Part shown: piece after piece, positions 2,267 through 3,685 of the stretch
Layout of the letters: every line of letters starts with the position of its first letter
How positions within the stretch are numbered: the first letter of the stretch is position 1
DNA from: Escherichia phage vB_Eco_T-01
Reading direction: 5' to 3' (one strand)
Sequence record: PQ438391.1
DNA: 64,000 nt
Notes under the pieces: generated by a model
Told to the model about the DNA's origin: nothing
What the model saw: the letters and a program-made list of their open reading frames with translations, nothing else
Databases searched by the model: none
Position numbers and translations under genes: made by a program

Positions 2267-3685
2267 ATGGCTTTTACAGTTGATATAACTCCTAAAACAC
2301 CTACTGGAGTTATAGATCAGACTCAGCAGTTTACTGCTACACCCAGTGGTCAAACTGGAGATGGACCTATTACATATGCTTGGACTGTAGATGATGTTCC
2401 ACAAGATGGAGCTGAAGCAACTTTTAGTTATGTACTAAAAGGACCTGCCGGTCAAAAGACTATTAAAGTAGTTGCAACAAATACAGTTCCAGAAGCTGAA
2501 GCTGAAACAGCAGAAGCTACGACAACTATTACAGTTCAAAATAAAACACAAACGACTACCTTAGCTGTAACTCCTAATAGTCCTTCGGAAGGGGTAATCG
2601 GAACAGCTATTGAATTTACCGCTACTTTAGCTTCGCAGCCATCAGGTGCATCTGCCACGTATCAATGGCACGTTGACGGTTCTCCTGTGGGCGAAGCAAC
2701 TTCTGCTACATTCAATTACACTCCTACCACAAGCGGAGTTAAAACAATTAAGTGTGTGGCTCAAGTAACCGCGACAGATTATGATGCAAAGGAAGTTACT
2801 TCTAATGAAGTGTCACTGACTGTTAATAAAAAGACGCAGACAACTACCTTGGCAGTAACTCCTGATAGTCCTTCAGCTGGAGTAATTGGAACCCCAGTTC
2901 AATTTACTGCTGCCTTAGCTTCTCAACCCGTCGGAGCGTCTGCTACGTATCAATGGTATGTAGACGATTCACAAGTTAGTGGAGAAACTAACTCTACATT
3001 TAATTATACTCCAACTACAAATGGAGTCAAAAGAATTAAATGCGTAGCCCAAGTAACTGCTGAAAATTACAATGAAAAGGAAGTTACTTCGAATGAAGTA
3101 TCATTAACAGTTAATAAGAAGACAATGAATCCACAGGTTACATTGACTCCTCCTTCTATTAACGTTCAACAAGATACTTCGGCTACATTTACTGCTAATG
3201 TGACTGATGCTCCAGAAGAAGCGCAAATTACTTATTCATGGAAGAAAGACTCTTCTCCTGTAGAAGAATCGACTAATGTGTATACAGTTGATACCTCATC
3301 TATTGGAAGTCAAACTATTGAAGTTACTGCAACTGTTACTGCTACTGATTATGATAGCAAAACTATTACAGCAGAAGGTCAAGTTCAGGTAACTGATAAA
3401 GTTGCTCCAGAACCAGAAGGTGAATTACCTTATGTTCATCCTCTTCCACATCGTACTTCAGCTTACATCTGGTGCGGTTGGTGGGTTATGGATGAAATCC
3501 AAAAAATGACTGAAGAAGGTAAAGATTGGAAAACTGAAGATCCAGATAGTAAATACTACCTGCATCGTTACACTCTTCAGAAGATGATGAAAGATTATCC
3601 AGAAGTTGATGTCCAAGAATCGCGTAATGGATACATCATTCACAAAACTGCTTTAGAAACTGGTATCATCTATACCTATCCATAA
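2267..3685 (+). CDS. hoc: Hoc outer capsid decoration protein with four Ig-like repeats
   Basis: 472 aa; tandem Ig-like modules and C-terminal capsid-binding segment 'WCGWWVMDEIQKM' as in T4 Hoc; one more Ig module than T4. Confidence 0.85.
   Translation: MAFTVDITPKTPTGVIDQTQQFTATPSGQTGDGPITYAWTVDDVPQDGAEATFSYVLKGPAGQKTIKVVATNTVPEAEAETAEATTTITVQNKTQTTTLAVTPNSPSEGVIGTAIEFTATLASQPSGASATYQWHVDGSPVGEATSATFNYTPTTSGVKTIKCVAQVTATDYDAKEVTSNEVSLTVNKKTQTTTLAVTPDSPSAGVIGTPVQFTAALASQPVGASATYQWYVDDSQVSGETNSTFNYTPTTNGVKRIKCVAQVTAENYNEKEVTSNEVSLTVNKKTMNPQVTLTPPSINVQQDTSATFTANVTDAPEEAQITYSWKKDSSPVEESTNVYTVDTSSIGSQTIEVTATVTATDYDSKTITAEGQVQVTDKVAPEPEGELPYVHPLPHRTSAYIWCGWWVMDEIQKMTEEGKDWKTEDPDSKYYLHRYTLQKMMKDYPEVDVQESRNGYIIHKTALETGIIYTYP
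2540..3115 (+). repeat. tandem duplication of an Ig-like domain coding unit within hoc (2 x ~288 bp)
   Basis: near-identical 96-aa blocks 'KTQTTTLAVTP...EVTSNEVSLTVNKK' repeated back to back. Confidence 0.8.

Follow-up and report, generated by a model that had tools for sequence, protein, structure and literature searches.

How the head decoration protein of Escherichia phage vB_Eco_T-01 came to carry four immunoglobulin (Ig)-like domains, where T4 Hoc carries three, is the question raised by the hoc locus of this phage. Among phage capsid proteins whose partner is the animal host and not the bacterium, Hoc is the best-studied example; it has a part in adherence to mucus and in immunogenicity, and T4 nanoparticle vaccines use it as their main display platform. 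In T4, 155 copies occupy the hexamer centres of each capsid as fibres of ~180 Å, and the number of Ig domains in Hoc homologues ranges from 1 to 10 (PMC10385173). Hoc Ig domains bind mucin glycans, with domain 2 of one T4-like Hoc binding MUC2 (PMC11853027), and mucin binding or mucosal retention has been described for Hoc of T4, PhiPNJ-6 and PhiPNJ-9 (PMC11853027, PMC11150434, PMC9271167). The sequence analysed here, referred to as the window, is a stretch of 64,000 nucleotides of record PQ438391.1. An earlier note, made from the letters of the window, had proposed that its Hoc acquired a fourth Ig-like domain by tandem duplication. The duplicated architecture is borne out below, and the analysis points to an old paralogue of domain 2 (D2) that varies in copy number across the genus.

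The gene is identified by homology as hoc, encoding a T4-type head decoration protein. A phmmer search against PDB sequences returns T4 Hoc (5vf3_Z, 8t1x and others) at E = 1e-214, and a DNA search matches 656 phage records, annotated as hoc or Hoc-like head decoration, with 87-95% identity between the window gene and annotated hoc genes. The order of open reading frames (ORFs) in the window, those 3' of hoc encoding 71, 92 and 334 aa, is the annotated order in RB27, PP01, Sf22 and KRT47 (uvsW, inh, hoc, 24.3, 24.2, rnlB, gene 24) and is also that of L005, a metagenomic contig considered further below. In T4 the same gene, encoding a Hoc of 376 aa (PDB 5vf3, 8t1x), occupies this locus too (inh - hoc - 24.3 - 24.2 - rnlB). 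The first 25 kb of the window are 96-97% identical to Tequatrovirus genomes, the closest being that of Shigella phage Sf22 (MF158045.1; 97.3%), and the window belongs to a Tequatrovirus (T4-like) genome. Features of the locus are collected in Table 1.

Table 1. Features of the hoc locus of vB_Eco_T-01, in window coordinates.
Feature	Position	Strand	Basis or remark
Helicase ORF, 503 aa	15-1526	-	neighbour of hoc
ORF, 226 aa	1577-2257	+	directly upstream of hoc; inh by gene order
Shine-Dalgarno-like AAGGA (putative)	2256-2260	+	read from sequence; 6 nt 5' of hoc ATG; overlaps inh stop codon
hoc CDS, head outer capsid decoration protein, 472 aa + stop	2267-3685	+	single ORF; T4 Hoc homology; gene order
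Ig-like domain 1 (D1), aa 1-92	2267-2542	+	aligned with T4 Hoc 1-92; AlphaFold2 beta-sandwich, pLDDT 82-93
D2a, first copy of Ig-like domain 2, aa 93-188	2543-2830	+	similarity to D2b; BiPBP_C and PKD Pfam matches; pLDDT 88-96
Putative unequal-crossover interval in D2a	2804-2811	+	L005 gap and a-to-b switch
D2b, second copy of Ig-like domain 2, aa 189-284	2831-3118	+	T4 Hoc 93-188; PKD Pfam match aa 195-267
Putative partner crossover interval in D2b	3092-3099	+	L005 gap and a-to-b switch
Ig-like domain 3 (D3), aa 285-378	3119-3400	+	Ig_3 and I-set Pfam matches aa 289-373; T4 Hoc 189-282; pLDDT 84-94
Linker and C-terminal capsid-binding domain, aa 379-472	3401-3682	+	near-identity to T4 Hoc 283-376
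Intrinsic-terminator-like hairpin AAGGGGC TTCG GCCCCTT with T-rich tail (putative)	3690-3717	+	consensus scan and sequence

The hairpin is G+C-rich and begins 5 nt 3' of the hoc stop codon, and it and the AAGGA motif are candidates for the regulatory roles that their names imply. An exact-match scan found no T4 late-promoter box TATAAATA on the + strand upstream of inh or hoc; a sequence one mismatch away from the box, AATAAATA, lies at about 1543-1550, and no promoter is claimed there. Over the whole window and both strands, TATAAATA occurs 22 times against 9.8 expected. Its sites fall on the - strand up to ~35.9 kb (with one + exception at 35881) and on the + strand beyond, a pattern that fits two divergently oriented late-gene blocks. 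Two further observations concern the neighbourhood of hoc. The gene 24.3 homologue (ORF 3775-3990, + strand) is 71 aa long when called mechanically from an upstream ATG, and annotated 24.3 starts later, giving 67 aa in RB27 and PP01 and 61 aa from a GTG in Sf22 and KRT47; the ATG start called for the window is tentative. In L005, a 230-aa NUMOD3-domain, homing-endonuclease-like ORF (60-752, - strand) lies immediately downstream of uvsW, at a position whose equivalent falls beyond the left end of the window.

Alignment of the window protein with T4 Hoc runs in two collinear stretches, query residues 1-107 matching T4 1-107 and query residues 189-472 matching T4 93-376, so that the length difference is exactly one 96-aa module. 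The length of 376 aa given for T4 Hoc in the earlier note agrees with the T4 chain in the PDB. Besides this extra copy of domain 2, the differences from T4 Hoc are scattered substitutions concentrated in loops. In the HMMER alignment D2a is the module that has no T4 counterpart, and D2b is the closer of the two to T4 domain 2. Pfam matches above the cut-off are PKD, PKD_4, PKD_3 and BiPBP_C, with Ig_3, Ig_2 and I-set just below it. An AlphaFold2 model based on a 38-sequence alignment shows four beta-sandwich domains up to residue ~378, mostly at pLDDT >90, with the same strand pattern in D2a and D2b, and the top PDB matches returned by Foldseek for this model are four-Ig ectodomains, such as Dscam1 and ICAM-5 D1-D4.

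The C-terminal domain is poorly modelled (pLDDT 33-61), and its capsid binding is therefore argued from sequence identity to T4. Residues Y389, H391, R396, W405, W406 and E451-G455 (E451-S-R-N-G455) are present and invariant in alignment A1. Their T4 equivalents, Y293, H295, R300, W309, W310 and E355-G359, either contact gp23* or are conserved (Fokine et al., PMC10385173). By this measure the capsid-binding domain is intact, and the ~97% identity of the anchor to that of T4 suggests that Hoc of vB_Eco_T-01 would bind as one monomer per gp23* hexamer centre (155 per prolate head) and would be dispensable for growth.

The relation between the second and third Ig modules stands out in every self-comparison. 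Tandem Repeats Finder reports a 288-nt period in 2.0 copies at 2555-3123, with 77% matches and a score of 684. At the protein level a single outstanding diagonal appears at an offset of 96 aa, with 69 of 90 positions identical, against 28 of 90 (31%) at the next offset, and at the DNA level an offset of 288 nt gives 75.6% identity, with all other offsets at or below 43%. Aligned in codon register, D2a and D2b are identical at 75 of 96 residues (78%) and at 217 of 288 nucleotides (75%), compared with 30-44% identity for the remaining pairs among the four Ig modules. The proposal that the fourth Ig-like domain is a tandem copy of domain 2 thus holds, as does the expectation that modules 2 and 3 would be far more alike than any other pair. 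The description of the two modules as near-identical proteins was an overstatement, given 21 differing residues in 96. The modules placed at 2540-3115 are real; those limits are shifted by 3 nt from the codon phase of the modules, a difference without consequence in a tandem repeat.

The age of the repeat can be read from its synonymous sites. Between D2a and D2b, first, second and third codon positions are 85%, 89% and 52% identical, respectively, and the codon differences comprise 37 synonymous and 21 non-synonymous changes. By the Nei-Gojobori method dN is 0.126 and dS 1.44; synonymous divergence between the copies is saturated, and the resulting dN/dS of about 0.09 indicates that both D2 copies are under purifying selection. 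First and second copies within RB27, PP01 and KRT47 differ at a dS of 0.83-1.11, and orthologous copies compared between these phages differ at only 0.16-0.37. Because divergence between copies so greatly exceeds that between orthologues, the split between the two modules long predates that between the sampled alleles. The D2 duplication is thus ancient, neither recent nor particular to vB_Eco_T-01. A recent duplication specific to this phage would account for the tandem, in-frame, module-exact layout and for nothing else; with 25% of nucleotides differing between the copies, synonymous sites saturated, and a position-matched two-copy gene in RB27, PP01, KRT47 and many other records, this origin is extremely improbable, and the combination of a dS of 1.44 with the wide occurrence of two-copy hoc refutes it.

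The wide occurrence is apparent from gene lengths. The hoc gene is 1419 nt long in RB27, PP01 and KRT47, and 1131 nt long in T4, RB9, RB14 and Sf22, the closest genome to the window. RB27, PP01, KRT47 and many other Tequatrovirus isolates share with the window the two-copy D2 architecture, the total length, the module boundaries and the correspondence of the copies. The interpretation offered in the earlier note is upheld, with the qualification that the duplication is ancient, widespread and prone to recombination. Since repeats in general can be mis-assembled, the duplication might be considered an error of assembly or a chimera formed when two phages were assembled together; nothing specific speaks for this. 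Both copies are read through in one intact frame, their divergence (75% identity) is too great to confuse an assembler, and more than 100 independently sequenced genomes contain the same 1419-nt gene; on these three grounds an artefact is rejected, its probability being negligible.

A search of 5.8 billion clustered proteins gives a broader view of length classes. The best 120 clusters comprise 77 of 376 aa and four of 377-378 aa, 29 of 472 aa and one of 468 aa, and nine of 567-570 aa, and splitting the proteins at the conserved 'KTQTTTL' module start resolves these classes into one, two and three D2-type modules. D2 copy number is therefore 1, 2 or 3 within the genus. To the three-copy class belong the 568-570-aa proteins (P0001-P0008, e.g. 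from Escherichia phages UGKSEcP1 and UGKSEcP2), members of the same family with three tandem D2-type modules in place of the two in the window; the central loop of the third module is a distinct variant, YVDGSLVDGETTTTF.

Prevalence was estimated in two ways, and the estimates disagree. In 60 evenly spaced records drawn from the 656 matching phage records, ~21 carry two copies (1419-1425 nt, or the equivalent with a divergent D1), 34 carry one and five are partial matches, corresponding to about 35% two-copy genes. A 120-nt probe spanning the D2a-D2b junction is covered over at least 80% of its length in 165 records, or about 25%; this count is a lower bound, since the probe matched only 321 of the 656 records, and it includes a few false joins, in which a single-copy gene is matched in two pieces. 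A two-copy hoc is therefore present in roughly a quarter to a third of the Tequatrovirus-type phages sequenced. Two simpler counts of carriers were rejected. Separate megablast probes for D2a and D2b both match single-copy genes, such as that of T2, at 80-85%, and whole-gene coverage of at least 80% (596 of 656 records) is inflated by alignment of a lone D2 to both query copies, as in T4, whose 1131-nt gene covers 100% of the window hoc in 2 pieces.

Several records turned up by these searches merit separate mention. P0076, a five-Ig Hoc of 567 aa with 24 member sequences, has a normal a-type first D2 module, followed by two modules with about 50% and 10% identity (ungapped) to the window D2 modules, which suggests that these later modules were imported from a distant hoc and not duplicated locally. 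In the 32-kb record MG010123.1, 'Staphylococcus phage SAJK-IND', a complete T4-type hoc with two copies is present at 93.3% identity; the label names a phage of Staphylococcus aureus, and the deposit is probably mislabelled or contaminated. Clusters of 472-aa Hoc (P0017, P0014, P0006 and others) bear the NCBI names 'endonuclease [Shigella sonnei]' or 'PKD domain-containing protein [Escherichia coli]'. These bacterial names reflect T4-like phage contigs inside bacterial assemblies and include one clear misannotation. Finally, the junction probe matches OZ035759.1 (Mosigvirus mar005p1) over 97% of its length at 92% identity, and half of it matches the similarly named LR027390.1 (vB_Eco_mar005P1); either the two-copy form exists outside Tequatrovirus or the labels are inconsistent.

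The two copies can be followed individually from phage to phage. The first copy of the window is 86-87% identical at the nucleotide level to the first copies of RB27, PP01 and KRT47 and 75-76% identical to their second copies; conversely, its second copy shares 86-94% with second copies and 76-79% with first copies. Against the RB27 and PP01 second copies D2b reaches 93-94% identity, and of the two positions the first varies more, with 86-88% identity between alleles. In the central block of the module (residues 43-55), the first copy is a-type in 21 of 30 two-copy alleles and the second is b-type in 22 of 30, indicating that the copies keep their positional identity despite exchange, with mosaic exceptions.

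Exchange is most evident in alleles with a lone D2. At the 21 amino acid positions that separate D2a from D2b, every combination of a and b blocks occurs among single-copy alleles. Some 376-aa alleles have an a-type sole D2, up to 99% identical to D2a, and others a b-type one, up to 97% identical to D2b; the lone D2 of Sf22 starts as b-type for a third of its length and is a-type thereafter. The variable residues of the module (12-16, 22-24, 34, 46-55, 62-64 and 78-84) lie mainly in loops of the AlphaFold2 model. That Sf22, at 97.3% identity over 25 kb, has one copy and a mosaic D2 indicates that the copy number and cassette content of hoc change on a much shorter timescale than the flanking genome diverges.

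A route by which copy number could change is suggested by L005, the contig encoding P0077 in the Logan assembly of metagenomic run SRR12217728 (SRR12217728_222). P0077 is a 376-aa protein whose D1 is identical to that of the window and whose D2 is 99% identical to D2a. The only gap in the alignment of L005 with the window covers exactly 288 nt (2804-3091), and the adjoining hoc sequence has few mismatches. Its lone D2 is D2a-like at informative sites through module nt 261, bar a few scattered sites, and D2b-like at all five informative sites in nt 270-288, placing the switch between module nt 262 and 269. As a chimera that begins as a and ends as b is the expected product, the difference between L005 and the window is read as unequal homologous crossing-over. 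Parsimony favours loss of a module from a two-copy allele: if the D2 of L005 had been freshly duplicated, both copies would be a-type.

The same body of single-copy alleles bears on how the pair first arose. Instead of descending from one duplicated module, D2a and D2b might stem from two divergent single-copy alleles, whose D2 modules were of the a and b type respectively and which were fused by unequal recombination at a module boundary during a mixed infection, a setting in which T4-like phages recombine heavily. Both types do occur as the sole D2 of 376-aa alleles, at the identities given above; the dS between copies (1.44) is far above that between orthologous copies (0.16-0.37); and the three module boundaries have short stretches of similar DNA (A-rich codons followed by AA[A/G]AC) that could have supported exchange. 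Single-copy alleles of either type are, however, equally explicable as deletion products, which L005 resembles, and the a and b blocks are too reshuffled for parental types to be reconstructed. Fusion of alleles is thus a possible but unlikely origin, and it concerns the origin only, since a tandem paralogous module results either way.

The explanation that accounts best for these observations, and that is very probably correct as a whole, is a four-Ig Hoc with an old D2 paralogue and a copy-number polymorphism maintained in flux by recombination. The fibre would consist of N-terminal D1, D2a, D2b and D3, followed by a C-terminal domain that docks at the centre of a hexamer of the major capsid protein, and the fourth Ig domain would be a tandem paralogue of domain 2 that is old, in frame and exact to the module. 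Nothing in the data speaks against this architecture. Forms with one, two or three D2 modules (376, 472 or 568 aa) would segregate among otherwise nearly identical T4-like phages and would interconvert through unequal homologous recombination inside the repeat, a few variable loop segments being exchanged between modules and between alleles by the same recombination, with both D2 copies retained under purifying selection. The predicted outcome is a fibre approximately one Ig domain longer than the ~180 Å of T4, bearing one more variable, surface-exposed binding or antigenic module with loops unlike those of the first D2.

Hoc homologues with other domain counts share the underlying plan, a string of Ig domains on a conserved C-terminal capsid anchor, as in RB49 Hoc (three Ig), PhiPNJ-9 Hoc (two Ig, without D3) and Hoc of Serratia phage Muldoon (10 Ig) (PMC10385173, PMC11853027); a two-Ig T4-like Hoc is thus already published (PMC11853027). 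RB49, PhiPNJ-9 and Muldoon Hoc are distant in sequence, none of their modules being a copy of the Tequatrovirus D2. Unlike the differences among those proteins, variation of the type seen in the window is found inside a single genus, among genomes that are about 97% identical. Compared with other 472-aa Hoc proteins, that of the window shows allelic differences only; the nearest records are 91-95% identical at the nucleotide level, and the best database match stands at 95.4%. Proteins of this length are labelled in GenBank as hoc, Hoc-like head decoration or PKD domain protein, and the 472-aa form has been deposited there for years under hoc annotations (RB27, PP01). The window hoc is accordingly a new allele of a known, common and already deposited class.

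In the papers that could be searched, there is no explicit account of the extra domain as a tandem D2 paralogue, nor one of the polymorphism of one, two and three copies within the genus or of mosaicism among loop cassettes; on the effect of a second D2, nothing was found in the literature searched. The population-level pattern of copy number and cassettes is thus possibly unreported so far, a modest addition. The number of domains may tune adherence, as the earlier note had suggested.

A more speculative extension is that the D2 array acts as a recombination-driven variation system selected in the gut, in which crossing-over alters module number and gene conversion shuffles loop cassettes among modules and co-infecting alleles. 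We offer this only tentatively and consider it doubtful. If true, phage populations would have at the capsid surface a range of adhesive or antigenic specificities, and of fibre lengths, that reassorts rapidly, and the selecting agent would be the animal gut, through mucin glycans and antibodies, and not the bacterial host.

About one in three T4-like isolates has a four-Ig Hoc, among them candidates for therapy and PP01, a phage in wide use, and some isolates have five Ig domains. Variation in Hoc length consequently bears on how mucus adherence is compared between phages, on how antibody cross-reactivity is judged, and on the choice of display scaffolds of different reach.
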